64,000 bases of DNA from a bacterium (lineage in GTDB: Bacteria > Verrucomicrobiota > Verrucomicrobiia > Limisphaerales > UBA11358). The notes under the pieces are model-generated. The model saw nothing but the letters and a program-made list of their open reading frames with translations. It was not told the origin of the DNA and did no database searches. This document shows, piece after piece, positions 1 to 33,759 of this stretch (positions within the stretch are counted from its first letter, which is position 1; each line of letters starts with the position of its first letter). Location of the stretch: positions 45,358 through 109,357 of the forward strand of contig JAJXXW010000028.1 of NCBI GenBank assembly GCA_021780905.1, in the 5' to 3' direction. A program made the position numbers and the translations under genes.

Positions 1-522
1 GATCTCGAAACGATTTCCGTGCAACGACAGGGCCAGCAAGGTATCGAGCCGGGCCAGCCGGAAGCCGCACTGTGAATCCGGCAGCTCCGCGCCGGTCAGA
101 TGGGAGATGCGCCGGGACATCCAACGATTCACCCAGCGCCGAATGACCGGCATGGCTTCCGGGTTTTGCATTCGGTTGCCAACGATTAGCGCGGCTCCGC
201 TTTGTTCCGCCTGTTTGAAAAAGTTCGGAATTTCCTGCGCATCATGCTGGCCATCGCCATCCAGCATCAAGGCCCAGTTGCAACCCAGCTGGCGGGCCTG
301 TTGCCAGCCATGGCGCAGAGCGATGCCCTTGCCGGAATTTTTGGGAAGCGACAACACCATTGCACCGGATCGCCGGGCCGTTTCAACGGTCGCATCGGTG
401 GAACCGTCGTCCACCACGATGACGGTGGCGAGATGTTGACGGGCTTTTTCAACCACGCGTCCGAGGTGCAGTGCCTCGTTGAAGCATGGGATGATGACCG
501 CGCACCGTTGATTCCAGTCCAT
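1..522 (-). CDS. Glycosyltransferase family 2 (DPM1-like), runs off the window edge
   Basis: Hand translation from ATG at 522: MDWNQRCAVIIPCFNE...VIVVDDGSTD...NSGKGIAL...MLDGDGQH...DSQCGFR, which are GT2 motifs. Not in the ORF track because the stop lies outside the window. Confidence 0.9.
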   Translation of the reverse strand, partial: MDWNQRCAVIIPCFNEALHLGRVVEKARQHLATVIVVDDGSTDATVETARRSGAMVLSLPKNSGKGIALRHGWQQARQLGCNWALMLDGDGQHDAQEIPNFFKQAEQSGAALIVGNRMQNPEAMPVIRRWVNRWMSRRISHLTGAELPDSQCGFRLARLDTLLALSLHGNRFEI

Positions 523-530
523 GCAGGGAA

Positions 531-1100
531 TCATTCCAAGCGGCTCGGGTGCAGGTCGGCCTTGAGAATGGACCCGTCCGTGGCGGAGATGTGAACGACA
601 CCGATGTCAGCCATGTCTTCCGGGTGTTTGAGTTTCGCCGCCCAGAGTTTGACTTTCCATTCCGGTCCGGTCGCACCATGACCGAGCTGGAGTTGCGTGG
701 CCTTAAGGGCGAGTGATTTGACGAGCGGATGGTCCGTGGCGATGGCCTGGGCCTTGTCAGAATCAATCTTCAATTTGTCGGCATCCAGTATTTTATCGTC
801 GCCAGTGATCGGCTCCAGCAGGCGCAGCGGATGCGAAACATCCAACTTTTCGCCCGCGCCAAATTTCACCTCGACGGCTTTGAGCGTGGCATCGGGATCG
901 TAATACACCACATACCAGATGTTCGGGGTGAGGCCACCGAGGGATTTCTCCGAGCGGATTTGGACGACCTTGTCTTTGCTCTGCACGCCTACGTATTCAT
1001 TCCCGCGTTTGACCAATTGGAAGGCGGTCAGATCTTTGGCGTCTGCCGTAGTGACGATGCAGACTGCCAGTAGCACGAAAGCGAAATATTTTATTTTCAT
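531..1100 (-). CDS. Secreted hypothetical protein
   Basis: ORF 531..1172; likely start MKIKYFAFVLLAVCIVTTADA (signal peptide) at 1100. Confidence 0.75.
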   Translation of the reverse strand: MKIKYFAFVLLAVCIVTTADAKDLTAFQLVKRGNEYVGVQSKDKVVQIRSEKSLGGLTPNIWYVVYYDPDATLKAVEVKFGAGEKLDVSHPLRLLEPITGDDKILDADKLKIDSDKAQAIATDHPLVKSLALKATQLQLGHGATGPEWKVKLWAAKLKHPEDMADIGVVHISATDGSILKADLHPSRLE

Positions 1101-1201
1101 AGTCTGGCCGCAATCTAGTCGCTGCCGGCCAAAGCGCAATGGATTTTTTTCAGCGCAGAAAATGCGTTGCACTGGACCCGGTCGCGATTTTTAATAGGGC
1201 T

Positions 1202-2233
1202 GTGCCGGATAAATATTATTTTCCAAGCGCCATTGATCTGGCTGTCCAAGGGACAAAACAGGCTGCGTTTCACGAACGGGCGACCGGCGTCACTCGCGGG
1301 AGATTCGGCACGTCGGTCTTTGTGCGTGCTGTGGTCGAGGTTTCCAACTTCTGCCGGGAGAACTGCACCTATTGCGGGATGCGGCGCGACAACCGCGCGT
1401 TGAAGCGTGTCCGCGCCCGGCACGAGTCGCTGGCGGAAATGCTCATCCAGCACCGGCCTGCCAGTGTCACGGACATCAACATCCAGGCCGGTGAAGATCC
1501 CGTGGCCGTGCGTGAAGTGGTGCTGCCGCTCATCCGCGCGCTCCGGCGTGAAACTTCCCTCGGCATCAGCGTTTGTCTCGGCACGTTGCCCACGGAATTA
1601 TACGCGGAACTGCAATCCGCCGGTGCCAGCATCTACATCATCAAGTTCGAGATCGGCGGGGCCGCCCAATACGAACAGTTTGCCGCGCCCGGCACATTGG
1701 CTGAACGTCTGCGTCATGTTCGATTGCTTGCGGATGCCGGATGGAATGTCAGTTCCGGCTTCATCTCCGGCCTGCCCGGTCAGACCGTCGATGACCTGAT
1801 ACATAATTTCAAGATTGCCAGCGAGCTTCCCCTGAACGGTTGCAGCGTCAGTCCATTCATTCCCGGAAATGAGACGCCGCTTTCCGACGGCCAGCCGGGA
1901 CGTTCGGATTGGACTTTGAATTCGATCGCCGCGCTCCGGCTGATGCGGCCGGACTGGATCATTCCCGCCATCAGCGCGTTGAACCTCATGGAGTCGGACG
2001 GTTATCGTCATGGCTTGCGCGCGGGCGCGAACTTGGTGACGATGAACCTGACCCCGGAAGAAGTGCGTGGCGATTATGTCATTTACAAACGCGACCGGTT
2101 CATCATGACCGAGGAACGTGTTCTGGACGCCATCGCCGCCGAGGGTTTGCAGCCATCCGTCGGCGGACTGGCGGAACACTATCGCCATCAGGCCGAGCGG
2201 CAGCCACAACCCCGGACCGCCCTGCCGGTTTAA
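1202..2233 (+). CDS. Radical SAM protein, HydE-like (BioB/HydE/PylB group)
   Basis: RAVVEVSNFCRENCTYCGMRRDN (CxxxCxxC), QAGEDP, SPFIP..TPL, GANLVTMNLTP..DYVIY. Start uncertain (GTG 1202 or ATG 1139). Confidence 0.85.
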   Translation: MPDKYYFPSAIDLAVQGTKQAAFHERATGVTRGRFGTSVFVRAVVEVSNFCRENCTYCGMRRDNRALKRVRARHESLAEMLIQHRPASVTDINIQAGEDPVAVREVVLPLIRALRRETSLGISVCLGTLPTELYAELQSAGASIYIIKFEIGGAAQYEQFAAPGTLAERLRHVRLLADAGWNVSSGFISGLPGQTVDDLIHNFKIASELPLNGCSVSPFIPGNETPLSDGQPGRSDWTLNSIAALRLMRPDWIIPAISALNLMESDGYRHGLRAGANLVTMNLTPEEVRGDYVIYKRDRFIMTEERVLDAIAAEGLQPSVGGLAEHYRHQAERQPQPRTALPV

Positions 2234-2239
2234 TATTTT

Positions 2240-3481
2240 GTGCTCTTTCCGCTCACAAAAAAAACCGAAAGCGCCAACCGCGTTGTGGTGACCGGCGCTG
2301 GTGTCATCACCGCGCTCGGCGCGGGGTGGGAGATCAACGCCGCCGGTTTCCGCGCGGGCCGGAACGCCTTTCGACCCGTAACGCTGTTCGACGCTTCCCA
2401 TCAACGCGCCAAGATCGCGGCGGAGATCGACTTGCCCGGAGAATTTCCCGCCACGCGGCTGCCGACAAAATATTATCGCCGGCTCGATCGCGCGGCGCGG
2501 ATGTTGTTGCTGGCTGCGCACGAAGCATGGACGCAAAGCGGCTGGCAAGGCAGCGAAAATCTGCCGGTGGTTTTGGGAACGACCAGCGGAGAGATGTCGC
2601 TCGGTCAGGCTTACCTGCGTCAGGCCATCAACTCACCGCGGCAATTTCACCGGCAGGCCACGCGCGTGGCTTACTATCAGATGCAGCGCCAGGCACTGGA
2701 TTTGTGCGAGGCATTCGGTTTTAACGGGCCGGTCACCATCATCTCCAACGCCTGTGCCTCCGGGTCCAACGCCATCGGCCACGCATGGGAATTGTTGCGC
2801 GATGGCCGTGCGGAAAGAGTGTTGACGGGTGGCTACGACGCCTTGTGCCAGCTCACCTTTGCGGGTTTCGATTCGTTGCAAGCGCTCGCGCCCACGGCCT
2901 GCCGGCCATTCGACGCGACGCGCAACGGGCTGACGCTTGGCGAAGGGGCGGCAGTTTTTACTTTGGAAACCCTTGCCGGTGCGCAGAAACGCGCCGCGCC
3001 GATCCTTGGAGAGATCATCGGCTACGGTGCGACCACCGATGTGCATCATCTCACCCAGCCGCATCCCGAAGGCGATGCCGCCCTCGCGGCGATGAACGCC
3101 GCCTGCGCCGCGGCCGGCATCACGGCCGCCCAAGTGGACTACGTGAATGCCCACGGCACGGCCACGCCGCAGAATGACGCCACCGAAGCCGTCGCTATCA
3201 ACCGTTGGGCCGGCGAACATGCCCGGAATATTTCTGTGAGTTCCACCAAGGCGTGCATCGGGCATCTGCTCGGTGCGGCGGGTGCAGTCGAGGCGGCGGT
3301 TTGCCTGATGGCATTGCGCGGACAATGGCTGCCGCCGGAAGTTTTGCTTGAACAGGTGGATCCCGTGTGTCGTTTCTCTATCGTGCGCCAGCCCACGGAC
3401 AAAAAAATCAAGATCGCGCTGTCGAACTCCTTCGGCTTCGGCGGTGCCAATGCCTCGCTCATCTTCCGGAGGTGGGCGTGA
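2240..3481 (+). CDS. Beta-ketoacyl-ACP synthase (FabF-like KAS II / type II PKS KS)
   Basis: Catalytic Cys-His-His motifs: NACASG, NAHGTAT, KACIGHLLGAAG; C-terminal SNSFGFGGAN. Confidence 0.93.
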   Translation: MLFPLTKKTESANRVVVTGAGVITALGAGWEINAAGFRAGRNAFRPVTLFDASHQRAKIAAEIDLPGEFPATRLPTKYYRRLDRAARMLLLAAHEAWTQSGWQGSENLPVVLGTTSGEMSLGQAYLRQAINSPRQFHRQATRVAYYQMQRQALDLCEAFGFNGPVTIISNACASGSNAIGHAWELLRDGRAERVLTGGYDALCQLTFAGFDSLQALAPTACRPFDATRNGLTLGEGAAVFTLETLAGAQKRAAPILGEIIGYGATTDVHHLTQPHPEGDAALAAMNAACAAAGITAAQVDYVNAHGTATPQNDATEAVAINRWAGEHARNISVSSTKACIGHLLGAAGAVEAAVCLMALRGQWLPPEVLLEQVDPVCRFSIVRQPTDKKIKIALSNSFGFGGANASLIFRRWA

Positions 3482-4476
3482 GCCGGATTTTCATCCATGG
3501 CACTGGTGCGGTTTCCCCGGCGGGTTGGGGCGTCGCGGCTTTATGCGAGGCTGTGAAGCAGGGCGTGCCGTTGCCGTGTCAGGATGTCCAACGTCCGGGT
3601 TGGGATGAACTGCTGGCTGTGCGTCTGGTTCCGGCACCGGCAGTCCGGTCGGCATTTCTCGCGCATCCCCGGCTGCGCCGGGCCGGGGCGATGGCGCAAC
3701 ACACTGTTGGCGCGGTGCTGGAGGCGCTGGGTGACGATGTGGCTCGTGTGCAATCCGGCGAACTGCGCTTAGGTATCATCGTGTGCATGATGGCCGGTGG
3801 CGTGACCTATTCGCGGCGGTTTTACGAGGAAGTGATGAAGGCACCGGAAACGGCCAGTCCGTTAATTTTTCCCGAGACGGTCTTCAATGCGCCAGCCAGC
3901 CATGTCGGTGCGTATCTCGGCTCCAAGACGATCAATTACACGCTCGTGGGCGACAACGGAACGGTTCTGCAAGGTCTTGCGCTTGGCGCCGGCTGGCTGG
4001 ACAGCGGCCGGGCCGATGCCTGTGTGGTGATCGGCACCGAGGAAGTGGACTGGGTGGTGGCCGATGCCTTGAGATTGTTCCAGCCGCGCACAATTTACAG
4101 CGGTGGTGCTGGCGCGGTGTATTTGAAGAAGGCGGTTTCCGACGTGGAGCTAAAGGCCGTCACGGATTCGTTTGTTTTCACCCGCCAGCAGGATTGCGTT
4201 GTGGCAGCGCGACTGGTGCGGGCGCAATTGCCGTCTGGATCTGCCGGGGAATTATTGTGTGATTGCGGCAGCCGCTTCGCGGATTGGACTGGCTGGCCAG
4301 GACAACGACTGACTTTAAAGCCAGTTCTCGGTGAAGCCTTTGACGCCTCGGCCGCATGGCAATGTGTGGTGGCTGCCCACACATTGCACGCAAAGGAATT
4401 TTCAGCGGCGAACATCAGTGTGGCCGGCGTAAACCAGCAGGCGATCGGCGCGCGGTTTGCCAGAAACGATTTATGA
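3478..4476 (+). CDS. Ketosynthase chain-length-factor-like protein
   Basis: GTG at 3478 overlaps the KAS stop (GTGA). Begins IFIHGTGAVSPAG, contains ASPLIFPETVFNAPASH, and has no Cys at the expected catalytic position. Confidence 0.8.
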   Translation: MSRIFIHGTGAVSPAGWGVAALCEAVKQGVPLPCQDVQRPGWDELLAVRLVPAPAVRSAFLAHPRLRRAGAMAQHTVGAVLEALGDDVARVQSGELRLGIIVCMMAGGVTYSRRFYEEVMKAPETASPLIFPETVFNAPASHVGAYLGSKTINYTLVGDNGTVLQGLALGAGWLDSGRADACVVIGTEEVDWVVADALRLFQPRTIYSGGAGAVYLKKAVSDVELKAVTDSFVFTRQQDCVVAARLVRAQLPSGSAGELLCDCGSRFADWTGWPGQRLTLKPVLGEAFDASAAWQCVVAAHTLHAKEFSAANISVAGVNQQAIGARFARNDL

Positions 4477-5204
4477 GTCAACGGATCATTCTCATCACGG
4501 GCGCGAACGGCGCGCTGGGACAGGCGGTGGCCCGGGCATTTTTGGATGAATCGCCTGGCAACCACGTGTGGCTTGGAGTCCATCAGCGGCGCGATCGGGC
4601 GGATGCGCTCGCTGCCGCAGAGGCCGGACGCTGCCGGGTCGTGTCGTTGAACGTGGCCGAGGCCGCCTCGTGGAAAAACGCCGTGGCCGAAATCCTTTCC
4701 GCGCATGATCGTCTGGATGCGCTCGTGAACAACGCCGGCACGCATGACGACGTCCTGCTCGCCCAGATGAAGCCGGAGTCGTGGCATGGGGTTCTCTCCG
4801 TGAATCTAGACGGGGTTTTTCATGGCTGTCAGACCGTGTTGCCGACGATGATTTCCCAACACCATGGGCGAATCATCAACATTTCGTCCTTGAGCGCCAT
4901 CTACGCGCCGGCCGGGCAGACGAACTACGCTGCCGCAAAGGCGGGCGTAGTGGCGCTGACGCAATCGCTGGCGAAGGAGGTCGCGCGGCTGGGCATCACA
5001 GTCAACGCCGTGTGCCCCGGCTATCTTGAGACCGAGATGCTGGATAAAATGGATTCGGCCACCCGTCAACGAGTGATGATGCAGGTGCCCATGCGCCGTT
5101 TTGGGAAGCCGGCGGAAGTTGCCGAAGCAGTTAGATTTCTGGCTTGCCCCGGTGCAAGTTACATCACAGGCTCTGTGCTAAAAATTGACGGCGGAATTTT
5201 TTAA
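4473..5204 (+). CDS. 3-oxoacyl-ACP reductase (FabG-like SDR)
   Basis: TGANGALG, LVNNAG, GQTNYAAAK, VNAVCPG, YITGSVLKIDGG; ATGA overlap with the upstream gene. Confidence 0.92.
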   Translation: MSQRIILITGANGALGQAVARAFLDESPGNHVWLGVHQRRDRADALAAAEAGRCRVVSLNVAEAASWKNAVAEILSAHDRLDALVNNAGTHDDVLLAQMKPESWHGVLSVNLDGVFHGCQTVLPTMISQHHGRIINISSLSAIYAPAGQTNYAAAKAGVVALTQSLAKEVARLGITVNAVCPGYLETEMLDKMDSATRQRVMMQVPMRRFGKPAEVAEAVRFLACPGASYITGSVLKIDGGIF

Positions 5205-5207
5205 GCA

Positions 5208-5462
5208 ATGAGCGATTCAATACAACTCAAAAGCGAGATCAAACGCATGTTGGTGGAGAACCTGATGCTGCAGATCAGCGCGGAAGAAATCGGCGACGAC
5301 CAGCCGCTGTTTGGGCCAGACAGTCTCGGCTTGGACTCCGTGGATGCATTGCAGCTGGTGGTGGCTTTGGAAAAAAATTTCGGTTTGAAGCTCTCTGATC
5401 CAGAAGTGGCCCGCGGAGTTTTGCGAAACGTAAACTCCATTGCTGCAGCCTTGCAATCCTAA
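5208..5462 (+). CDS. Acyl carrier protein
   Basis: 84 aa acidic protein with the LGLDSVDAL phosphopantetheine attachment motif. Confidence 0.93.
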   Translation: MSDSIQLKSEIKRMLVENLMLQISAEEIGDDQPLFGPDSLGLDSVDALQLVVALEKNFGLKLSDPEVARGVLRNVNSIAAALQS

Positions 5463-6456
5463 ACCAGCACCTTTCGGTGTGCGGCGTGATTCGAAGTTTT
5501 GGACCAGTTAAATCGGAATACTCCATGCCATTAGGCTGACTCGGAAGTTTACATGTCCATATGCCGTCCGAGGTGTGGCACGGGTGCTCAGCGCGCGCGA
5601 GCGTAACTCGCGTGAACTGCTGTTGATATTGGTGACAACCGATTCTCACCCTATTGATGACCCGCTGGGCTCAGTAGAACGAAAGTTCGCGCTCTGCAAG
5701 CTCGCTGATCATAAGGTAAATACAAACGCGCTAGTGGCCCGCGGAAATGGTGCCACTCCGGAAGGAGCTTCGCTCGCAGGCCGGCATGCAGCTCGTGACA
5801 GTTGCTCGGCAGTGCGCCTCGCACCTGTCACTATGGCTTCTTCTCTGCCGCCGTGCTGGCACTTCGCTTCGGATACCGCTCCGCCTGCGCAGGGTGTCTC
5901 GGACAAAAGCTTTTGCGTATTGCGCCAGTTCCGCTGTGCGATCCTGGCGTTTCGGCATCATCTTCTGCAAAAACTGGTCGCGGGTGACGGGGTATTCCCC
6001 GGTTGGCAAAAAGGGATCTTCGACAGAATCTGAACCACTCCGGGTTTTATCCCAAACCCATTGACTGTTTTGCATCCCCACTTCGTCAACAAAATCGGCG
6101 AGAAAGATCCTTTTCCGGGCCGCCAGTCATAGACTCATGGCTATTTCCGCAAGACGGTCATGATTTTCGTTCGAGATTCGCGCCAAAGTGGCAGTGATCA
6201 AGGCAATCCATCCGGCAACACGCCTCTGTCAAAAGCTGAAAATCCTCATGCGAAGCTTTCGAGCACACCTTCGCAAACTCATTCTGCTATCACTGAAAAG
6301 ACCGCCGGGAAAAGTTGCCATTAAATTTGCCTTTAAGCGGTTTTTGTGGCAACTATCTGCACTCCAGTTCACTCACCTGCACTTTGAAGAAATCCGCCAA
6401 AAATCAACACTCCCCTTTATCCATAGCCTTCTTTTTGATTTTCCAATGAAAAGAAG

Positions 6457-6532
6457 TGGTGGGTTGGCGGGGACTCGAACCCCGGACCAATGCCTTAAAA
6501 GGGCACTGCTCTACCAACTGAGCTACCAACCC
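6457..6532 (-). tRNA. tRNA-Lys (anticodon UUU)
   Basis: Reverse complement GGGTTGGTAGCTCAGTTGGTAGAGCAGTGCCCTTTTAAGGCATTGGTCCGGGGTTCGAGTCCCCGCCAACCCACCA: 76-nt cloverleaf, TTCGA T-loop, encoded CCA. Confidence 0.97.
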
Positions 6533-6732
6533 ATCCGATTTTTATTCGGCGTTGAAGACATCACCTTGCAACCTCATAGAACTTCAAATCATCGGCAGGT
6601 ATTATACCTTGGCTTGCTTGAGGGGCAAGTCGTTTCACGGTGACTCTTCACGCCGCCGTCCTTCCCATCACTTTCCCTTGCCGAAGAATACGGCCAGGGG
6701 CGTTGCTCGAAAACCATCTTTCCCCTCCGGAC

Positions 6733-8334
6733 TCAACTCCCGCGCCGCACCACGGAATCGCGCTGCGACCAGGCTGGGTTCGCCCCGGGGAAATCCAGAT
6801 TGTAATTCAGTCCGCGGCTTTCGGGACGCTGCAAGGCGCAATGCACAATCAATTCGGCCACCATCGCGATGTTACGCAGTTCCAGCAAATCGGCGGTCAC
6901 GATGAAATTCCAGTAATACTCCTGAATTTCCTGCTGCAAGTTCGCCAGCCGTTTTTGTGCGCGTTGCAGCCGCTTGTTCGTCCGCACGATGCCGACGTAA
7001 TCCCACATCAGCCGCCGGATCTCGTCCCAGTTGTGCGCGACGACGACCATTTCATCCGCGTTCGTCGCGCTGCCGGATTGCCACACCGGGATTTTGAAAT
7101 CGGATTTCGGCAGCGGCGCGGAAAGAATCTTTTCCGCCGCCCGATGCGCGCAGACGAGCGCCTCCAGCAGCGAATTGCTCGCCAGCCGGTTCGCGCCGTG
7201 CAGGCCGGTGCAGGCGACTTCGCCGACGGCGAACAGCCCGGCGATGTCCGTCCCGCCGTCCAGGTTCGTCACCACGCCGCCGCACTGGTAATGCGCCGCC
7301 GGCACCACGGGAATCGGCTCGCGCGTGATGTCAATGCCGTAGCGCAGGCACGTCTGGTGGATGTTCGGAAACCGCTCGATGATGAATTTCGCCGACTTGT
7401 GCGTGATGTCCAGATGCACGCAGTCCGCGCCGGTCTTTTTCATCTCGCTGTCAATCGCGCGGGCCACGATGTCGCGCGGAGCGAGTGATTTCAGCGGATG
7501 CACGGCGTCCATGAATTCCCGACCGTCGAGCGTTTTCAAAATGCCGCCTTCACCGCGCACGGCTTCGCTGATGAGAAATGATTTCGCCTTCGGATGGTAA
7601 AGGCACGTCGGATGAAACTGGACGAACTCCATGTTCGCGATGCTCGCGCCAGCGCGAAACGCCATCGCCACGCCGTCGCCGGTCGCGATGTCGGGATTCG
7701 TCGTGTAGAGATAAACCTTGCCGCAACCGCCCGTCGCCAGCACCGTCACCGGCGCGGCGAACGTCCAGACGCGGTTGCCCTTTTTGTCGAAAACGTAAGC
7801 ACCAAGACAGCGGTTCTCGCCGACGTAGCCGAGCTTCTGGCTCGTGATCAAATCAATCGCGATGTGGTTCTCAAAAATCTCGATGTTCGGCTGACGCGAA
7901 ATGGCGTCGAGCAGCGCGCGCTCGATTTCGCGGCCGGTCACGTCCTTCGCGTGCAGAATCCGGCGCTCGGAATGACCGCCTTCGCGGCCGAGGTCGAGCT
8001 GTTTGCCGCCGTCTTTGCTGGGCGCGGCACTTTCGGAAAATTTCATCCCGAGCGCGATCAGCTCCGCGATGCGCGCCGGTCCTTCCCCGACAATCGTGCG
8101 CACGACGCTTTCCTTGCACAGCCCCGCGCCCGCCGTGAGCGTATCTTGAACGTGCGACTCGAAGGAATCCGTCTTGCTCGTGACCGACGCGATGCCGCCC
8201 TGCGCGTAGTTGGTGTTCGACTCTGCGCGGTCTTTTTTGGTGACGATGGCCACGCGCCCGCGCGGCGCGACCTTGAGCGCGAACGTCAGTCCAGCGATGC
8301 CGCTGCCGAGAATGAGAAAATCAAAATGTTTCAC
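6733..8334 (-). CDS. nadB: L-aspartate oxidase
   Basis: GSGIAG FAD motif, [46 protein letters not shown]. Confidence 0.96.
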
Positions 8335-8509
8335 CGGACAAAAGCATTAACGCAAAGACCCGGAAGGGCAAAGCCGCAAATGTTTTGAAGTTTCAAACTT
8401 TCCGTCCTGAATTGACAATTTGCATCTGCGGAACAGCGGCGGTAGCGGCCCACGTTGCAACTTCGGCCTTGTTTTTTGTCGCCACTTCTAGGCCACCCTC
8501 TCCGGGTCT

Positions 8510-10933
8510 TCAAGATATGCCTTTATTCCCGCCCCACTGGTAGGTTTCACCCTTCTTGATTTCCACGGCCTTGGTCGCCGAGCCGTAACGCAGCACGGCG
8601 CGATTGCCATTTAGCGAGCGAATGGCCGCTTTCGTCAGTTTTCCATTTTGCCAGGCGATGTCCACCTCGAAGCCGCCGCGAGCGCGCAGGCCTTTGACGC
8701 TGCCGGTCGGCCACGCTTGCGGCAGCGCAGGCAGGAGCTGGAGTTCGCCGTTCTGGCTTTGCAGCAACATTTCCGTGATCCCGGAAGCGCCGCCGAAGTT
8801 ACCGTCAATCTGGAACGGCGGGCAGGAGTCGAAGAGGTCGGGATACGTGCAGCGCGGACTGATGAGGTCTTGCAAGATCCCGAACGCATGGTCGCCATCA
8901 CGCAGTCGCGCCCAGAGGTTGATGCGCCAGGCCGTGCCCCAGCCGGTCGCCTGGTCGCCGCGAATCTCCAAGGATTTTTTTACGGCGGCGGCGAGTTCGG
9001 GCGTGGTGCGCAGGTCGATTTGTGCGCTGGGATAAAGTCCATAGAGATGTGACACGTGACGGTGATGCAACTCGTGTGAGTTAAGATCCAAATCCTGCAA
9101 CCATTCCTGCAACTGGCCGGCGGAGCCAATCTGCAACGGCGCGAGCCGTGCGCGGGCGGCGGCAACCTGCGCGGCAAATTTTTGGTCCGTGCCAAAAATT
9201 TCCGAGGCGCGGATGCAGTTCGCGAACAAGTCGCGGAGAATTTCCAGATCCATTGTCGGGCCGGCGCAGATGCTGGTGCCTTTCGCCGCAGGGTTGCGGT
9301 TCTCCGGCGAGAGCGACGGACAGGTGACCAGATTCGCGGGGGCGGGCAGGTTCGGATCTGCAACCAGCGTGTCGAGGAAGAACTGCGCCGCGCCTTTCAT
9401 GGCGGGATAAATCCGGCGCAAATAGCTTTCATCATCGGTGAACAGGTAATGTTCCCACAAATTCTGGAGCAGCCATGCGCCGCCCAGCGGCCACATGCCG
9501 GAATTCGGCCCGTCAATCGGCGCGGTCGCGCGCCACAAATCCAGATTGTGATGCGCCACCCAGCCGTGCGCGCCATACATCACCTGCGCGGTGCGCTGGC
9601 CGGTCTCGGCCGCCTCCAAAACCATTTGCGTGAGCGGCTCGACGCATTCGGAAAGGTTGTCCGGCTCGGCGGGCCAGTAATTCATCTCGGTGTTGATGTT
9701 GATGGTGTATTTGCTGTCCCACGGCGGCTTCATGGAATTGTTCCACAAGCCCTGCAACGTCGCTGGCTGGCTGCCGGGCCGCGAGCAGGAAATCAGCAGG
9801 TAGCGCGCAAACTGGAAATACAGCGCGGCCAGCTGCGGGTCGCGGCCGTCGGCAAAATGTTGAATGCGCTCGTCGGTCGGCAATTTCATTGCCTCCGACT
9901 CGCCGAGATTCAGTTCCACCCGGCGGAAAAGTCTTTGGTAATCGGCGCAGTGCGCCGCGCGCAAAGCGGCGAAGGTTTTTTTGCCGGCGGCGGCAAGCTG
10001 TTTTTTGACGATGGCTTCGGGATCGCCGCTGACGTCGTGATAATTTCTAAAACTCGTCGCGGCGGCAAGGAACAGCGTGGCCTCGTCCGCATTGGCAACC
10101 CGGATGGAATCCGGACCGGTGAACAGTGTTCCGCCGTGCGCTTGGATGCCGATCCGCGCCTGAAATTTCAGCGCGCCCGGGATGCCGCGCGCCTCACTGT
10201 TGACGCCGCGCAAGACCAGTTGCGAGGGAAATTCGGATCCAGCCGGCAGTTTTCCAATCGCATTTGGCGTTCCGAACATTTCCGTCTTCATCACGGCTTT
10301 CTGCGGTGTCGTCATTCCGGCCGTGAACGAGATTTTTCCCGGCTGATCCGCCGTCAGCCGGATGACAATAACCTGATCCACCGCGCTGGAGAAAATTTCG
10401 CGTTTGAAATGCACGCCGTTCGCCGTGTAGCTGACCGTTGCGACGGCGGTATCCAAATCCAAATCGCGGCGATAGTTTTCCATCGCGGGCGACGGCAAAT
10501 CATGCAGCCGGTCATCTTCGTTCGTCGTGGTTCTGGGCAAATCCAGCCACAAATCGCCCAGCGTCTGATACGGCAACTGGCGGAGCGGCACGGCCATCAT
10601 TTTATCGCTGATCAATTTGGCCGCCTCGTCATATTTGCCGGCGAACACCAGCCGGCGGACTTCCGGCAGCGCGGCGAACGCGTTGGTGTTGTTCGGGTCG
10701 TAAGGCCCGCCGGCCCAGAGTGTGCCTTCGTTCAGTTGCAGATGTTCGCGCTCCACACCACCGAAAATCATCGCGCCCAGCCGGCCGTTGCCGATGGGCA
10801 GCGCCTCGGTCCAGGCCTTGGCCGGTTGTTGATACCACAGCGTCAGCGGCGACGCGGCGCTGCCGGCATGGCTGGATTGAAAAAGAGAAATCGCCGTGAG
10901 CGCGGCAAAAAAGCTGCGGGAGATGGCTGCCAT
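8510..10933 (-). CDS. Glycoside hydrolase family 95 (alpha-1,2-L-fucosidase-like)
   Basis: [56 protein letters not shown]; start at MAAISRSFF (signal peptide). Confidence 0.93.
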
Positions 10934-10980
10934 CAAAACATTTTCGCCGGCCCCGCCCCGCAAACAAGCGCAAAATGGAA

Positions 10981-13911
10981 TCACGGCACGCTCGGGCGGG
11001 ACGTGCAGGGCTGCGAGGCGATCGTCGCCGTCGCGGCGGTCAGACCGTCCGCACTCGCGTTCAGTTTGATTTCGCCGGCATCCTTGGTGGATTGCACGAT
11101 GATTTGCGCCAGGCCGTTGAACAAGCTGCGCGAACACAGCGGCGCAACCGGCCGGCCGATAATTTCCACGTTCACGTCCGGACTCAGGCCGCCATCACCC
11201 TCGTCATTTTTCACCCCCACCGCGATAACATTGTCGCCGGCATGCAGCGTCTGTTTGAGGTCAAATACCGGCGCGGCTTGCCAGTTGTGCGATTCGCCGA
11301 TCCGCTCGTTGTTCACGAAGACCCAGCCGTGATCGTCAATCGAGCCAAACCGGATTTGCGCGCCGGGGTTGTTCAGGTCTTGCGCCGTCAACGGGAGATG
11401 CGCGCGGAAAACAGCCGTCTCGCCTGGCTGCAAAACCATGCCGCGCTTGGTGTCGCCTTGGGATTTGATGGTGTTCCACGCCGAGTCGTCGAACTCCGGC
11501 GCGTATTCCGGCGCCAACGCGCCCTTCGCGGGCAGCTTGGCGAGTTGCCAGCGCCAGGCGTTCACCGGCAACGTTTTCTCCGCCGGCAGCGCGACGAACG
11601 TGTCCGGTTCGTGGCAGCTTGGGTCGCCGTTGCCGACGCCGATAATTTTCCCCGCGCCTCCGATGACAAAATTGATTTTATTCTGCGCCACCGGCACCAC
11701 ACGGCCCTGCGCGTCCCGCACGGCCACGGTGAATATGCTGACGTCCGTGCCGTCGGCGTTGATTGTCTTACGGTCTGGCGTGAGCTGGATTTGTGTCGCC
11801 GAGCCGGTCGTCTCGACTTGCGTCTCGGCGATGACATTGCCGGCGGCGTCAAACCCTTTCGCGCTCAACGTGCCCGGCGCGTAGGTCACTTTCCACGTCA
11901 GCTTGGAATTCGGCTTCATGTCCTGTTTGCCAAGCGATGCGCCGTTCAGAAAGAGTTCCACGGATTTGCAGTTGCTCAACGCGTCCACGCGGATTTCCTG
12001 GCCTTCCTTGCCGGGCCAGTTCCAGTGCGGCAGCAGATGCAAAACAATGTTGGTCGTCCACCAGGATTGGTAGTAATAAAAATTGTCCTTGGGGAAACCG
12101 CACATGTCGAGCACGCCGAAATGCGAGCTGATGCACGGCCACGAATACGGCGTCGGCTCGCCGCGATAATCAAAGCCCGTCCAGATAAACCCGCCGCTCA
12201 ACCACGGGCGGTCCGCGAAAAACTTCCACCAGCGCTCCGCCGTCTGCGTGCCGCGATCATCATAGGCGCGGACGTAGCCGCGCTGGGCGTCATCCTGGTA
12301 AATGCCGCGGGTGCAAACGGTGCTGGCCTGTTCCGTGCCGACGTTTGGCTGGTCGGGATGCTGGGCGTGATACTTATCCATGTCCGGGCCGGGATAATAA
12401 TTCCAGCCGCGCACCTCGATGACGGAGTTGACGCCCTTGAAAACATCGCCTTCCGGCGCAGCATAAGTTACCGGCCGCGTCGGGTCGAGCTGCTTGGCCA
12501 GGTTTTGCATGGAGCACGCGACGTTGGCGGCCTGCGGCGTGTCTTGCACGGTAAACTCCTCGTTGCCGATGCTCCAGAGGGCGACGCTCGGATGATTGCG
12601 GTCGCGGCGGATCTGGTCGTCCCACTTTTTAAGATTTTCCGAATCGCTGCCGAGCAAGCGGCTCTCGTCCATGACGATCATGCCGAGTCGGTCACAGGCG
12701 TCGAGCAATTCCGGCGTGGGCGGATTGTGCGAGGTGCGGATGGCGTTGCAGCCAAATTCCTTCAACTTTTTCACGCGGAAATCCTGCAACGCATCTGGCA
12801 GCGCCGCGCCGACACCGGCCATGTCCTGATGATTGCACGTGCCGTAAAGTTCGTAAGGCTGGCCGTTCAGAAGAAAGCCTTTGTCCTTGTCAAAAGCGAA
12901 CGTGCGGATGCCGAACTCGGTTTCAACGCGGTCAACGACACTGTTGCTGATAATAACTGTCGTGATGAGCTTGTAGAGTTTTGGTGTTTCGGGAGACCAA
13001 AGTTCAGGAACAGGAACTTCAAGGAAATCCCTCACCATATGGCCGCCAAATTTATCTCGTCGGGTATACGTCTCAATCCAAGATTGAAGACTTTCATATT
13101 TATCTTTTTTTTCAAAAATAATTTCACCTTTTGGACCAAGGATTTTTTGCGCCAGAAGAACCAGAACATCGTTTGTCAAATAATTCAACAAGTTAATATC
13201 TGTTTGTATTAACGCAGTGCTTTGTTCCTTAGTGGTTGTCGAACCAACGACTCCATGATCGAAATAGGAGCTTACAAACACCCCGTCCGGCGCGATGGCT
13301 ACCGGCGCGGTTTTGTCCAGCCAGACATGGCGGTAGATGCCCGCGCCCTCGTAAAACCAGCCCTCGAACTTGCTTGCGTCCACGCGCACGGCAATCACGT
13401 TCTGGCCGCCGAACTTCACCACGTCCGTAATGTCTTCGCGAAATGGATAGTAGCCGCCCTCATGCCGCTTCACGAGCCAGCCGTTCACCCACACCGTCGC
13501 GTCGTGCATCACGCCGTCGAACGTCAGCCAGATGCGCCGGCCGGCATCCTCCGCCGGTAAATCAAACTTCCGACGATACCAACCGAGACTATTCGTCGGA
13601 AAGCCCGGCCCGACCGGCTTAAAGCCGTGGTTCCGGTCGGCGCTGGCGTCAAACGGCAGTTCAACCGCCCAGTCGTGCGGCAGGTCGAGGGTGCGCCAGG
13701 CGGTGTCGTTGAAATTTTCCGCCGCCGGCCCGCCGCTCTTGCCGGCTTTTTCGAGATTCAGCGCATTCGGCCAGTCGTCACCGAGGTGAAATTTCCAGTT
13801 CGCGTCGAGCGAAAGATGTTCGCGGGGCGAAGCGGCGGCGGCGGCGCGCAGGCTGGGATGAAAGGCGGCGACGGACCACACAAGCCAGCCAAGGACGCAG
13901 GCGGATTTCAT
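10981..13911 (-). CDS. Glycoside hydrolase family 2 (beta-galactosidase GalA-like)
   Basis: [54 protein letters not shown]; signal peptide from MKSACVLG. Confidence 0.93.
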
Positions 13912-14010
13912 GCGGACAATTTGGGCACCCGTGCGGCGCGTGGCAATTTTATTCCCCAATCTTTCAGCGCGGCGGCAGGCTGCCGGCAGAGTGGCCGGAT
14001 GAAATGGCCG

Positions 14011-15582
14011 CTATTTCCAATAGTTCCAGTTCGCGTCGGGGAAAAGATTGTCGCGCGCCTCGATTTCGCGGAGCCATTTCGCGTCCACCTTCGTCCGCGT
14101 GAGCTGCTCGTGCAGCGCAATGAACCGGAGCAGATGATCCTTCACGCGGCGGCGCGCGTAGTCGGGACTGGTGCCGGCGCGCAGGATGAACGGCCAGTCG
14201 CTCGCCTGCGCGAGCAGGAGTTCGCGCGCGGCCTGCTTGAGCGCGCGCGCCTTGAGGCCGGTGGCGGCGGGAAACTTGTTCGCCAGCTCGGTCATCCGCT
14301 CCTGCGCGATTTGCAGATGCGGATAAATCCACTCGTTGGTCTCGTTGAGCCACACGCGCCAGTAGCCTTCCTCGCCCCAGCTCGACGCGCCGGGCGTGGC
14401 GACCTGGTTGGTCGGATGGCGCTGCAAGTATTCGCCGGGGGTGATGAGGGAAATGTCCTTCTGCTCGTGGCACAGTTTCCGCGCGAGAAAATCCAAGAAC
14501 TCCGGCCCTTCATACCACCAGTGCCCGAACAGCTCCGCGTCATACGGCGCGACGATGATGGGCGGCCGGTCGAGCAGCGGCGCAATCTGTTTCGCCTGCG
14601 CCACCCGTTCGTCAAGAAAATGCCGCGCGTGTTCGCTGGCCGCCGCAAGCGCGTGGTCGCGCTCATAGACCTGCTTCTCGCCGGTGCCGGTGATGCGGTA
14701 GTATTTGATGCCGGTGAAGCCGCGATTGTCCGGCGACGGCAGATGCGGCTTCACATAATCAAAATCGAGATCGAAGCCGATGTCGCGGTAGAAGTCGCGG
14801 TAGCGCGGGTCGCCGGGATAACCCTCGTGCTGGCTCCAGACCTGCCGCGAGGAATCGTAGTCGCGCCCGAACGCGGCGACGCCATTCGGCGTGAAGATGG
14901 GCGCGAACGTGCCGAAGCGCGGACGCGGCTTGGCGTGCAAAATGCCGTGCGTGTCGAGGATGAACCAGCGGATGTTCGCCTCCTGCAAAAACTTTTCGAC
15001 GCCCTCGGCGTAGGCGCATTCCGGCAGCCAGATGCCGCGCGGTTCGCGTCCGAAACAACTTTGGTAGTGGTCGCGCGCGGTGAGGATTTGCCCGCGAATG
15101 CTCGGCGCATGAGCGGACATGAGCGGCAATAATCCGTGCGTCGCGGCGGTGGTGATAATTTCAAGCTGACCCTCGTCCTGAAACTGGCGGAAGGCGGAAA
15201 TCAGATTTCCATCGTAATGACGCCATGTTTCGCGCGCCTGGCAGAATTTATGGTGATACATCCACGCGAGGTCGCGATAGGCGCGATCCCAGTGTGTGCG
15301 ATGAATTTCCTTTTCCGCCAAATCAATCAAGCCGTCGAGATGTTTGGCGTAGCGGTCGCGCAGCAGCGGGTCGAGCAGCATCGCGCACAGCGTGGGCGAA
15401 AGCGAGAGCGTGAAACGCGCGGGCGATTGGTCGCGCCGCCAGCTTTGAATGACCTGAATGAGCGGCAGGTAGGTTTCGGTGACGGCCTCGAACAGCCAGC
15501 TTTCTTCCAGAAATTTTTGATGTTCCGGGTGCCGCACAAACGGCAGGTGTGCGTGGAGGACGATGGAAAGGTAGCCGGACAT
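14011..15582 (-). CDS. GH57 1,4-alpha-glucan branching enzyme (DUF1957)
   Basis: LHAHLPFVRH, ETYLP, GIWLPEC, YDAELFGHWWYEG, ARELLLAQASDW. Confidence 0.93.
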   Translation of the reverse strand: MSGYLSIVLHAHLPFVRHPEHQKFLEESWLFEAVTETYLPLIQVIQSWRRDQSPARFTLSLSPTLCAMLLDPLLRDRYAKHLDGLIDLAEKEIHRTHWDRAYRDLAWMYHHKFCQARETWRHYDGNLISAFRQFQDEGQLEIITTAATHGLLPLMSAHAPSIRGQILTARDHYQSCFGREPRGIWLPECAYAEGVEKFLQEANIRWFILDTHGILHAKPRPRFGTFAPIFTPNGVAAFGRDYDSSRQVWSQHEGYPGDPRYRDFYRDIGFDLDFDYVKPHLPSPDNRGFTGIKYYRITGTGEKQVYERDHALAAASEHARHFLDERVAQAKQIAPLLDRPPIIVAPYDAELFGHWWYEGPEFLDFLARKLCHEQKDISLITPGEYLQRHPTNQVATPGASSWGEEGYWRVWLNETNEWIYPHLQIAQERMTELANKFPAATGLKARALKQAARELLLAQASDWPFILRAGTSPDYARRRVKDHLLRFIALHEQLTRTKVDAKWLREIEARDNLFPDANWNYWK

Positions 15583-31092: not shown

Positions 31093-32598
31093 ATGCCCAA
31101 GCGCACCGACATCCACAGCGTCCTCATCATCGGCGCCGGCCCGATCATCATCGGCCAGGCGTGCGAGTTCGATTACTCCGGCACGCAGGCGTGCAAAGCC
31201 CTCAAGGAGGAAGGCTACCGCGTCATCCTCATCAACTCCAACCCGGCCACCATCATGACCGACCCGGAGTTCGCCGACCGCACTTACATCGAGCCGATCA
31301 CGCCCGAGTGCGTGGAGAAAATTCTCATCCGCGAAAAAGCGGAAATGAAGAAACTCGGCGCGCAGGGCAAACTCGTTTTGCTGCCCACGCTCGGCGGCCA
31401 GACGGCTTTGAACACCGCGATGGCGCTGCATAAAAACGGCGCATTGGAACGCCACGACGTGGAGATGATCGGCGCAAAACCGGAAGCGATTCACAAAGGC
31501 GAAGACCGGCTGGCATTCAAAGATTTGATGCTATCCATTGGGCTCGACGTGCCGATTTCCGGCGTGGCGCACAACATGGACGAGGCCCGCGCCGTGGCGG
31601 ACAAAATCGGCAAGTTCCCGCTCATCATCCGGCCCGCGTTCACGCTCGGCGGCACCGGCGGCGGCATCGGTTACAACCGCGACGAGTTCGAGGAGATTGC
31701 CAAACGCGGCATCGAACTTTCGCCCGTGAACGAAATTCTCATCGAAGAATCCCTCCTCGGCTGGAAGGAATACGAGATGGAAGTCATGCGCGACAAGGCC
31801 GACAACTGCGTCATCATCTGCTCAATCGAGAACTTCGATCCCATGGGCGTCCACACCGGCGACAGCATCACCGTCGCGCCCATCCAGACGCTGACCGACA
31901 AGGAATTTCAGATCATGCGGGACCAGAGCTTCGCCGTCATCCGCGCCGTGGGCGTCGAGACCGGCGGCTCGAACATCCAGTTCGGCGTCAGCCCGGAGAA
32001 TGGCCGCATGGTCATCATCGAAATGAACCCGCGCGTCAGCCGGAGCTCCGCTCTGGCATCAAAAGCCACGGGCTTCCCGATCGCCAAGATCGCCGCCAAA
32101 CTCGCCGTCGGCTACCTGCTCGACGAACTCAAGAACGACATCACGCGCGAAACGCCCGCCAGCTTCGAGCCGAGCATTGATTACGTCGTCACGAAAATTC
32201 CGCGCTTTGCCTTCGAGAAATTCCCGCAGGCCGACCCCACGCTCACCACGCAGATGAAAAGCGTCGGCGAAGCGATGGCAATCGGACGAACCTTCAAAGA
32301 ATCCCTCCAAAAATGTCTCCGCTCACTCGAAATCGGGCGCAGTGGACTCGGCGGTGACGGCAAGCCATGGCGAATTGGAACAGAAGTTTACGGCGACCGC
32401 GACATCCTCCCGCGCGACGTCATCAGCCGCAAACTGAGCGTGCCCAACGCCGAGCGCATCTTCTTCATCCGCCACGCCCTGCGCGCCGGCTTCACCATCG
32501 AGGAGATTTTCAACCTCACGAAGATTGACCGCTGGTTCCTGGTGCAGATCAAGGAGATCGTGGATTTTGAGGAAGAGTTGGCTGGGGCGAAGAATTAA
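31093..32598 (+). CDS. carB: Carbamoyl-phosphate synthase large subunit, N-terminal half only (501 aa)
   Basis: [53 protein letters not shown]; stop after EEELAGAKN. Confidence 0.93.
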
Positions 32599-32618
32599 AT
32601 TATCGAGGAACAAAACAA

Positions 32619-33719: not shown

Positions 33720-33759
33720 ATTTTCGTTTTCGCGGCACTAATGTTTGCGGCCGTCCGAA

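Follow-up and report, generated by a model that had tools for sequence, protein, structure and literature searches.

Few reactions are known for radical S-adenosylmethionine (SAM) enzymes of the HydE class: HydE itself serves in H-cluster assembly, and the wider fold class includes PylB (methylornithine synthase) and BioB (biotin synthase), both of which perform radical reactions on small molecules within a closed barrel. To our knowledge HydE, PylB, BioB, HydG, ThiH, MqnE and NosL all act on free small molecules, and none of the characterised enzymes with this fold is known to us to use a substrate bound to a carrier protein. In Gram-negative bacteria, aryl-polyene (APE), flexirubin and xanthomonadin clusters combine a beta-ketoacyl-ACP synthase (KS) and a Cys-less partner with KR, DH, ACP, AMP-ligase and methyltransferase genes, without an enoyl reductase (ER), and with GT2, LPLAT, LolA-like, MMPL-type exporter and halogenase-like flavoenzyme genes. 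We know of no radical SAM enzyme in APE clusters, or in the type II PKS-like cispentacin system (AmcB, AmcE, AmcF-AmcG, AmcH), in which an AMP-ligase reportedly puts a small acid on the ACP. The candidate ladderane/PUFA-type clusters of anammox bacteria and Desulfotalea, by contrast, do contain such genes: according to the gene table in the accessible part of PMC4790861, Kuenenia kuste3335-3352 encodes a glycosyltransferase, SAM methylases, FabZ, ACPs, FabG, two SAM-radical enzymes, an aryl-acid-CoA-ligase-like protein and FabFs, one of them non-canonical.

The window analysed here, a 64-kb stretch of verrucomicrobial DNA, contains an operon in which a HydE-like radical SAM gene (rSAM) precedes genes for a KS, a CLF-like protein, FabG and an ACP (Table 1). 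The five genes are tightly packed on one strand, with a 6-bp gap between rSAM and KS, 4-bp overlaps at the KS/CLF-like and CLF-like/FabG junctions and a 3-bp gap before the ACP gene; these coordinates agree with the arrangement given in an earlier, sequence-only reading of this DNA (five co-oriented genes, gaps of 6 bp or less or 4-bp overlaps). The secreted-protein and GT2 genes that it described as divergently transcribed were also found, overlapping each other by 4 bp; GT2 crosses the left window edge, the full gene (238 aa) lying at 18176-18892 of locus L008. Beyond the ACP gene there are only the tRNA-Lys gene and nadB on the other strand. Between 400 and 6700, promoter-like sites (3 observed, 2.5 expected) and terminator-like sites (10 observed, 7.9 expected) occur close to the expected numbers.

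Table 1. Features at the left end of the window (positions in the 64-kb stretch)
Feature	Coordinates	Strand	Basis or remark
GT2, N-terminal part (polyprenyl-phosphate sugar synthase-like)	1..534	-	PF00535
Secreted protein, no known family	531..1172	-	signal-peptide-like N-terminus by eye
HydE-family radical SAM (rSAM)	1139 (ATG) or 1202 (GTG)..2233	+	Radical_SAM match; best NCBIfam HydE
FabF-like beta-ketoacyl-ACP synthase (KS)	2240..3481	+	PF00109 + PF02801
CLF-like KS partner, 332 aa	3478..4476	+	weak FabF N-terminal matches
FabG-like KR (3-oxoacyl-ACP reductase)	4473..5204	+	adh_short_C2, TIGR01830
ACP, final gene of the operon	5208..5462	+	PP-binding domain
tRNA-Lys	6457..6532	-	downstream of ACP

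The rSAM protein resembles HydE without reaching the threshold for that family. It scores 184.2 bits against HydE (TIGR03956; equivalog cut-off 254.6), with relatives from other genomes at 187-202 bits, and falls further short of PylB (TIGR03910; 116.6 bits, cut-off 348.2) and BioB (TIGR00433; 64.3 bits, cut-off 225). The match to the TmHydE sequence has E = 3.7e-48 at approximately 30% identity, and the predicted model (pLDDT 77.7) has the complete (beta-alpha)8 barrel common to the T. maritima HydE structures (3ciw, 5few, 7o1o), with TM 0.76-0.80 to TmHydE, compared with 0.70 for PylB 3t7v (E = 2.1e-17) and 0.67 for BioB 1r30; the structural relatives found were HydE, PylB, BioB, HydG, ThiH, MqnE and NosL. 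The HydE-type motifs first noticed in this gene can be read in its translation (RAVVEVSNFCRENCTYCGMRRDN, GEDP and DYVIY), and CX3CX2C...GxRRDN, GEDP, GLPGQT and the C-terminal YxxY are common to rSAM and HydE. Across the 15 family members on which invariance was judged, CX3CX2C (C72, C76, C79), GEDP and GLPGQT are invariant, which, together with the agreement between the model and TmHydE, argues for a catalytically competent enzyme. By eye, rSAM has no C-terminal Cys triad of the kind that holds the auxiliary cluster of HydE, and of the BioB auxiliary-cluster cysteines only what we take to be Cys146 seems to be kept. According to the accessible text of PMC10114646, HydE handles the Fe(CO)2CN intermediate with two conserved residues, Met224 and Met291; rSAM has Gly234 and Thr301 at the aligned positions, and both replacements are kept in 15/15 family members.

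The genomic context also differs from that of HydE, rSAM lying in a lipid cluster of a genome in which no HydA, HydF or HydG was found. None of hydA, hydF and hydG occurs in the window, as first reported, and in the whole assembly (3.89 Mb, 90.6% complete) there is no match to Fe_hyd_lg_C (HydA), whilst the best matches to HydG (182 bits, cut-off 312) and HydF (94 bits, cut-off 325.6) are under threshold. HydE is the best family and structure match of rSAM and public annotation (JGI) names its homologues 'biotin synthase'; nevertheless, with all three cut-offs missed, both methionines replaced, no hydrogenase partners found and a separate true BioB encoded elsewhere (C37; 370.4 bits against TIGR00433), we attach a negligible probability to rSAM serving as HydE proper or as the biotin synthase of this organism, a reading that cut-offs, residues and genome content refute as far as sequence can tell. 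'Biotin synthase' is a mislabel for this family, and the evidence above supports the original proposal of a HydE-class paralog that has taken on a role other than hydrogenase maturation.

The remaining operon genes encode the components of a type II system. The KS matches FabF at 357 bits (cut-off 493.75) and has FabF 1j3n (283.8 bits) as its best PDB match; its translation contains NACASG, HGTAT and GH, so that as read it has an intact Cys-His-His and is of the active type. The CLF-like protein lacks the active-site Cys and matches FabF (35.7 bits) and PF00109 (18.2 bits) weakly; the closest fold matches of its predicted model are the CLF chains of AntDE, Iga11/12 and actinorhodin, which we treat as supportive only because model confidence is low (pLDDT 61.8). 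PDB 9s5h, the best sequence match of the CLF-like protein (29 bits) and the third best of the KS (250 bits), may be the anammox amxFabF heterodimer, although no PDB code appears in the text of the preprint. FabG matches adh_short_C2 (187 bits) and, under cut-off, TIGR01830 (253.4 bits, cut-off 297.75) and FlxB (209.5 bits); the ACP matches PP-binding (40.2 bits) and, also under cut-off, PRK09184 (43 bits). GT2 matches PF00535 at 82.6 bits, with PpgS (90.5 bits, under cut-off) as best NCBIfam family. The secreted protein likely starts at an internal ATG near 1100 (MKIKYF...), which would give the signal-peptide-like N-terminus seen by eye in the translation (MKIKYFAFVLLAVCIVTTADA); like u242 and u175, it has no match in Pfam or NCBIfam at a threshold as permissive as E <= 1, and its homologues are present in 8/20 loci of related clusters.

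Upstream of the operon lie export and anchoring genes of the kind found in APE-like and kuste3335-3352-like clusters. In addition to a FabZ-like DH, an acid-AMP ligase, a methyltransferase, a LolA-like carrier and a halogenase-like flavoenzyme, the cluster encodes an LPLAT (Lip_A_acyltrans) fused to an MMPL/HpnN-like exporter; no ER was annotated between L008 6869 and window position 5462, and none of the cluster's genes was recognisable as encoding a starter-making enzyme, although an AMP-ligase is present. The assignment to an APE-like type was upheld, since both the core set (KS with Cys-less partner, KR, DH, ACP and acid-AMP ligase, no ER) and the export and anchoring set (LPLAT, GT2, LolA-like and MMPL/RND-like) are present, and the cluster has matches, both under cut-off, to FlxB and LolA2_flexi. 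It differs from APE clusters in having one DH and one ACP rather than two, in its MMPL-LPLAT fusion and in a KS nearer to FabF than to PDB 7f27/7f28 (185-191 bits), which we take to be APE ketosynthases, although the entry titles are silent on APE. Resemblance to the cispentacin system extends to KS-AmcF (209 bits), ACP-AmcB (41 bits) and DH-AmcE (35 bits) matches, all under the respective cut-offs of 325, 80 and 140. By the gene table in the accessible part of PMC4790861, the candidate ladderane/PUFA-type cluster kuste3335-3352 is an equally close parallel, since it too combines FAS II genes and a non-canonical FabF partner with methylase, glycosyltransferase and aryl-acid ligase genes. However, no phytoene-desaturase-like gene was seen here, and the source genome, with its HydE-class enzyme, has no match to TIGR04072 ('rSAM_ladder_B12') at E <= 1e-60; the products ascribed to all these clusters are putative. 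Our literature search found no radical SAM enzyme in APE clusters, no paper on a HydE-class member in such KS/CLF clusters, in line with the initial remark that none was known from APE-like clusters, and nothing relevant for HydE-like, homolog or paralog; in the accessible parts of the ladderane literature the radical enzymes named are of the B12 or 'SAM radical' kind, with no HydE/BioB-like one among them, whilst the supplements may hold finer annotation.

The rSAM-headed lipid operon occurs in soil and freshwater Verrucomicrobia. Across 150 genomes of the order, rSAM was found in 63 and the CLF in 71, with 52 genomes containing both, 11 rSAM only, 19 CLF only and 68 neither, counts that overstate independence because the genomes of one order are related. 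The KS active-site motif was detected in 41/80 rSAM-centred loci scanned for it, in 24 of them directly downstream of rSAM, at a distance of 536-635 nt from where the rSAM match ends (555 nt for the operon in the window), and at 0/18 loci around HydE-like matches from other classes of the phylum. GT2 is the most constant neighbour of rSAM, lying divergently beside it in 11/18 order-level loci, and in the closest relatives rSAM is fused into the KS operon. In a genome of another order (L071), rSAM (55% identity) is divergent from KS-CLF-ACP in a locus that also contains flavoenzyme, LPLAT, DH, GT2 and AMP-ligase genes. The linkage that had been noted in this one window is thus supported as conserved, together with KR and GT2, across one order and into a second.

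The association is not strict: rSAM is an optional gene of the cluster, and is not essential to the core pathway because 19/71 CLF-positive genomes are without it. The 11 genomes with rSAM but no CLF appeared to signal independence from the cluster, a reading weakened by a cluster-type KS (52-67% identity) in three of the five checked, and at least 55/63 rSAM-positive genomes carry the cluster's CLF or KS. The other two genomes checked, G331 (92% complete) and G347 (84%), hold only a housekeeping-like FabF. G329 keeps rSAM 336 kb away from the KS operon; L068 and L069 have methyltransferase, GT2, rSAM, flavoenzyme-like and secreted-protein genes as a module apart from KS/CLF; and isolated copies (L062, L066) adjoin a hemQ-like gene, SMC, NusA and YebC.

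Clusters without the HydE-like gene have two B12 radical SAM genes in the same slot, one of them the 'ladderane-type' TIGR04072. In G247 the pair lies between GT2 and KS (TIGR04072 at 388.5 bits, cut-off 360), whereas in G334, L086 and L090 the HydE-like gene is itself followed immediately by TIGR04072, and in G334 then by a second B12 radical SAM gene and KS; in all four TIGR04072 is above cut-off. The 71 CLF-positive genomes divide into 45 with the HydE-like kind only, 15 with the B12 kind only, 7 with both and 4 with neither, so that at least one kind is present in 67/71. Because seven genomes keep both, the two kinds are not simple substitutes. This sharing of a slot is new here; like the kuste3335-3352 parallel and the optional nature of rSAM, it had gone unnoticed in the earlier, sequence-only reading.

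Taken together, these data make it probable that rSAM is a competent HydE/PylB/BioB-class enzyme, optional and cluster-dedicated in an ER-less type II FAS/PKS-like pathway and unconnected to hydrogenase maturation. In this pathway the KS/CLF heterodimer, KR, FabZ-like DH and ACP would elongate a chain without ER, the product probably being an unsaturated acyl or polyene chain that would be placed on a lipid or glycolipid anchor and exported to the outer membrane. The substrate, reaction and product of rSAM we infer from its fold class and setting, and the starter-making or chain-modifying role with a (glyco)lipid product that the earlier reading proposed is equally hypothetical. Because every characterised member of the class known to us acts on small molecules, we tentatively favour, at somewhat short of an even chance, conversion of a small free carboxylate or amino-acid-like molecule into an unusual starter acid: the substrate would sit inside the (beta-alpha)8 barrel, the 5'-deoxyadenosyl radical would turn it into the acid by rearrangement or by forming a C-C or C-S bond, the AMP-ligase would load it on the ACP and KS/CLF would extend it. 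This choice is favoured by the presence of an AMP-ligase in a cluster with no recognised starter-making enzyme, and by retention of rSAM far from the KS operon in G329. The pathway assignment and this mechanism, considered as one explanation, have in our estimate even odds.

The position of rSAM at the head of the KS operon, 6 bp upstream of KS in an arrangement that recurs in 24/80 loci, and the B12 pair found in its place fit at least as well with tailoring of the chain itself, the main alternative to a starter acid. Here the substrate of rSAM would be a (poly)enoyl or beta-functionalised chain still tethered to the ACP, and its reaction perhaps 5'-deoxyadenosyl addition to C=C, cyclisation or cross-linking, a job analogous or complementary to that of the ladderane-type B12 pair; the G247 pair, the HydE-like-TIGR04072 tandems and the 67/71 genomes with at least one kind point the same way, as does the reaction of HydE, described in the accessible text of PMC10114646 as radical addition instead of H-abstraction. 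However, the two kinds co-occur in seven genomes, their complementary distribution runs along clade lines and may reflect phylogeny, and such a substrate would be a departure from what is known of the fold class; we regard chain tailoring as possible but unlikely. The constancy of GT2 as immediate neighbour could instead point to head-group chemistry, with rSAM, the divergent GT2 and a methyltransferase acting on a sugar or lipid anchor, and the L068 and L069 modules would suit this. Yet the closest relatives have rSAM within the KS operon itself, and GT2 and KS are adjacent in G336, which has no rSAM, so that GT2 adjacency may reflect cluster layout only; we consider this role distinctly improbable. 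Very unlikely, finally, is an unrelated housekeeping enzyme (e.g. of cofactor synthesis) whose frequent proximity to the cluster would be incidental: the isolated copies and the lack of a detected cluster-type KS in G331 and G347 would be consistent with it, but presence in only 63/150 genomes is odd for housekeeping, at least 55 of those genomes hold the cluster's CLF or KS, and the linkage survives rearrangements and reaches a second order.

The integration of a large, conserved rSAM clade in a lipid pathway implies radical chemistry of a new kind. Sharing of the slot with TIGR04072 connects a widespread Verrucomicrobia cluster to the radical SAM steps of ladderane- and Desulfotalea-type FAS clusters, to which, as far as we know, nobody has assigned a reaction. 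With little confidence we extend this to a radical-enzyme slot at the head of the KS operon, filled by the HydE-class enzyme, the ladderane-type B12 pair or both, where the HydE-class enzyme might act on a polyene or acyl precursor of the lipid by radical chemistry not seen before (adenosyl-radical addition, or a C-C or C-S ring or cross-link) and tied to TIGR04072 function; were this so, the chemistry of ladderane-type clusters could be approached in more tractable, non-anammox bacteria, some of them culturable. The 45/15/7/4 distribution itself provides natural 'swap' variants for comparative lipidomics.

The HydE-like radical SAM gene heads five co-oriented genes, continuing with a ketosynthase (KS), a KS-like partner (CLF), a FabG-type reductase (KR) and an ACP, to all of which it is operonically coupled. 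Both this tight spacing and the divergent secreted protein and GT2, as proposed by a sequence-only reading, are borne out by the coordinates (table), and the identities of the five operon genes by Pfam/NCBIfam assignments. Only tRNA-Lys and nadB, the latter on the opposite strand, lie 3' of the ACP gene, so the operon stops there. The KS retains its Cys-His-His residues, as read from the translation, and scores higher against solved FabF structures (283.8 bits) than against ishigamide Iga11 (197.5) or 7f27/7f28 (185-191). The CLF sequence lacks the active-site Cys and gives only weak N-terminal FabF matches (35.7 bits in NCBIfam; PF00109, 18.2 bits); its low-confidence model (pLDDT 61.8) best matches the chain-length-factor subunits of AntDE, the ishigamide pair and actinorhodin. 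Elsewhere in the window, one segment has a G+C of 0.50 against about 0.60 in the rest, possibly as a foreign or AT-rich insertion.

Positions of the operon, its flanking genes and other features discussed in the text
Feature	Sequence	Position	Strand	Remark
GT2	window	1-534	-	extends beyond left end; divergent from operon
Secreted protein without known family	window	531-1172	-	co-transcribed with GT2; divergent from operon
Radical SAM (HydE-like)	window	1139 (ATG) or 1202 (GTG) to 2233	+	operon gene 1
KS	window	2240-3481	+	6-bp gap after radical SAM gene
CLF	window	3478-4476	+	4-bp overlap with KS
KR	window	4473-5204	+	4-bp overlap with CLF
ACP	window	5208-5462	+	3-bp gap after KR
tRNA-Lys	window	6457-6532		beyond ACP
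Low-G+C segment	window	32001-34000
Na+/H+ exchanger	L008 (contig left of window)	13825-15375	-	upstream cluster region
HydG-matching paralog	G000 (window's genome), C94	1680-2588	-
HydG-matching paralog	G000, C74	13805-14638	+
HydG-matching paralog	G000, C29	51826-52704	-
HydE-like gene after hemQ-family gene	L062 (G230)	8385-10543
Na+/H+ exchanger	L071 (another order)	10573-11847	+
HydE-like paralog and neighbours	L072 (G243:C2:1057700-1077600)	7096-10552
KS-CLF-KR and neighbours	L154 (G349)	8463-15445
KS-CLF-KR and neighbours	L156 (G213)	4953-11932

The HydE-type motifs noticed earlier in the first gene are all present in its translation (RAVVEVSNFCRENCTYCGMRRDN, GEDP and DYVIY), and its nearest solved structure by sequence is T. 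maritima HydE (E = 3.7e-48), followed by PylB (8.7e-18) and BioB (2.2e-06). A model built from 15 family members (pLDDT 77.7) likewise gives TM scores of 0.76-0.80 to TmHydE, 0.70 to PylB and 0.67 to BioB. HydE is also the best NCBIfam family, at 184.2 bits under a curated cut-off of 254.6, with PylB (116.6 bits; cut-off 348.2) and BioB (64.3; 225) behind it. The search for hydA, hydF and hydG that the sequence-only reading had suggested turned up neither the [FeFe]-hydrogenase large-subunit domain nor a HydG or HydF above cut-off in the 3.89-Mb assembly (96 contigs, 90.6% complete), and a separate BioB gene (370 bits) is present in the same genome. Given these sub-cut-off scores, the failure to find the partners in that assembly and the separate BioB, we reject a true HydE or BioB with near certainty. 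In a structural review (PMC10114646), Met224 and Met291 are described as conserved HydE residues handling the Fe(CO)2CN intermediate; in a sequence alignment to TmHydE they correspond to Gly234 and Thr301, and neither residue varies across the 15 members, among them a copy from another order and a paralog, each 51% identical. Nor is there any variation in GEDP, GLPGQT or the radical SAM cysteines, so that the protein looks like an active member of the HydE fold class, its radical SAM motifs intact and its pocket predicted to be remodelled. Beyond CX3CX2C the only conserved cysteines in the family are Cys146 and Cys235; no auxiliary-cluster Cys triad was seen by eye, and of the BioB auxiliary-cluster Cys positions only Cys146 seems retained, the others being judged absent. 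The same hydrogenase-free genome carries three paralogous radical SAM genes (401-403 aa) matching HydG at about 176-182 bits (cut-off 312), which may be ThiH-like tyrosine lyases or other enzymes; a triple copy is unusual.

Verrucomicrobiota metagenome bins contain many close homologues, often called 'biotin synthase' in JGI annotation (66-87% identity in the 120 best matches listed), with public labels of Limisphaerales, Pedosphaera and subdivision 3. Several bins with this Verrucomicrobia-type gene (L076, L077, L127, L140, L152 and others) bear labels of other taxa (Bifidobacteriaceae, Akkermansia muciniphila, Chitinophaga pinensis, Methylomirabilota, Haliangiales, Terriglobia) and are probably mislabelled or mis-binned. 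Among 150 genomes of the order (radical SAM threshold E <= 1e-60), 52 had both the radical SAM and CLF genes, 11 the former only, 19 the latter only and 68 neither. Three of five checked 'radical SAM only' genomes hold a cluster-type KS (52-67% identity), indicating that the CLF search had missed these; the other two genomes, 92% and 84% complete, offer nothing closer than a FabF of 37% identity. The neighbourhood set comprised 20 loci of about 20 kb (18 order-level orthologs, one locus from another order and one paralog), and KS/CLF/KR lay within 10 kb of the radical SAM gene in eight of the 18. In a second set of 80 loci from named species-representative bins, partly the same genomes, a degenerate KS active-site motif occurred in 41, a lower bound since several of the remaining 39 end a few hundred bases from the radical SAM gene; it was downstream on the same strand in 40 of the 41, at 536-635 nt past the end of the radical SAM match in 24 loci (555 nt in the window). 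All 18 loci surrounding HydE-like matches from other classes of the phylum lacked the motif. The linkage, whose conservation had been put forward as a check, thus holds in 52 of 63 radical SAM-positive genomes, in 41 of 80 loci and in another order, where L071 has the gene divergent from KS-CLF-ACP with a flavoenzyme, LPLAT, DH, GT2 and AMP-ligase; these counts come from related, non-independent genomes and carry no statistical claim. The radical SAM gene is a conserved but optional cluster member. A second, 55%-identical paralog (L072) lies in another lipid-transport context, adjoining a 771-aa MlaA-domain lipoprotein fusion, an SRPBCC (polyketide-cyclase-like) protein and a two-component system; the Kuenenia cluster likewise ends with a VacJ/MlaA-like gene.

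New here, besides the Met224/Met291 test of HydE identity, are a slot shared with B12-binding radical SAM genes, the complementary distribution of the two kinds and operons holding three radical SAM genes. Four CLF-positive genomes without the HydE-like gene were inspected. In G247 the exact interval between GT2 and KS is occupied by two B12-binding radical SAM genes, one matching TIGR04072 (rSAM_ladder_B12, 'lipid biosynthesis B12-binding/radical SAM protein'; 388.5 bits, cut-off 360) and one HpnJ/BchE-like under every cut-off; in G336 GT2 directly abuts KS, and in G349 and G213 the neighbours of KS-CLF-KR are type II secretion genes and a squalene-hopene cyclase. The sister species G334 combines both kinds in the order HydE-like, TIGR04072 (394 bits), second B12 radical SAM, KS, CLF, KR, ACP, and in two further loci (L086, L090) the next gene downstream after the HydE-like one is of the TIGR04072 type. 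TIGR04072 matches at E <= 1e-60 occur in 26 of the 150 genomes, 18 of them above cut-off, and at that threshold in none of the window genome's proteins. The 71 CLF-positive genomes divide into 45 with the HydE-like gene only, 15 with the B12 type only (within 3 kb of CLF in six), seven with both and four with neither; from this split and the gene orders, very few clusters lack a radical SAM system altogether, and both kinds occupy the same place, at the start of the KS operon. In G349 and G213 (one family), KS-CLF-KR lies apart from other cluster genes, with a TPR protein and the cyclase encoded immediately after it.

The radical SAM protein is probably dedicated to this lipid pathway; all that follows on its chemistry is inferred. 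Our tentative proposal is that it would form or remodel a small free acid, which the AMP-ligase would then load onto the ACP. The structural relatives found with the model (HydE, PylB, BioB, HydG, ThiH, MqnE and NosL) are known to act on small enclosed substrates, no starter-making enzyme was recognised among the annotated cluster genes, and the gene persists even where the KS operon is hundreds of kb away, all of which point to a small acid. The main rival, tailoring of an ACP-bound unsaturated chain as assumed for the B12 enzymes, is favoured by the operon position and by the near-universal presence of one or other radical SAM set; we regard it as possible and somewhat less likely than the small-acid route.

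A part in head-group chemistry with GT2, which lies divergently next to the HydE-like gene in 11 of the 18 order-level loci, seems improbable. Five of these loci have no cluster gene nearby, or the secreted protein alone, with hemQ-like, SMC, NusA, YebC or large surface-protein genes adjoining instead. An unrelated housekeeping role is very improbable. In one locus (L062) the HydE-like gene follows a gene of the hemQ/chlorite-dismutase family (hydrogen-peroxide-dependent heme synthase; 255.9 bits, cut-off 253), with the cluster-type KS on another contig.

The contig runs on for 45 kb left of the window, where further cluster genes encode a halogenase/geranylgeranyl-reductase-like flavoenzyme, proteins of 175 and 242 aa without assigned family, a 1092-aa protein in which an MMPL/HpnN-like transporter (172 bits to hopanoid HpnN, below cut-off) is fused to a lipid-A-type acyltransferase, a LolA-like protein, a FabZ-like dehydratase, a Na+/H+ exchanger, an acid-AMP ligase, a class-I methyltransferase and the GT2 whose gene continues into the window; no enoyl reductase was seen among the annotated cluster genes. 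The aryl-polyene-like type suggested by the sequence-only reading fits, this gene set being the inventory of such clusters, but Kuenenia kuste3335-3352, a candidate ladderane/PUFA-type cluster, is matched equally well. The latter holds a glycosyltransferase, SAM methylases, FabZ, ACPs, FabG, two SAM-radical enzymes, a phenylacetyl-CoA-ligase-like gene and FabFs including a non-canonical one (PMC4790861). In genome-mining work, 'arylpolyene' and 'ladderane' type clusters are already reported in Verrucomicrobia including Pedosphaerales (PMC8692599); the cluster kind is known but still uncharacterised, and the present cluster is a variant of it. In the available portions of the ladderane literature the SAM-radical enzymes discussed are of B12 type or unspecified, and no description of a HydE-class enzyme in such clusters was found in the literature searched, to which paper supplements could add. 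In the locus from another order, an exchanger 39% identical to the window genome's directly follows the HydE-like gene, a recurrence that may be coincidence or may mark a genuine cluster member.
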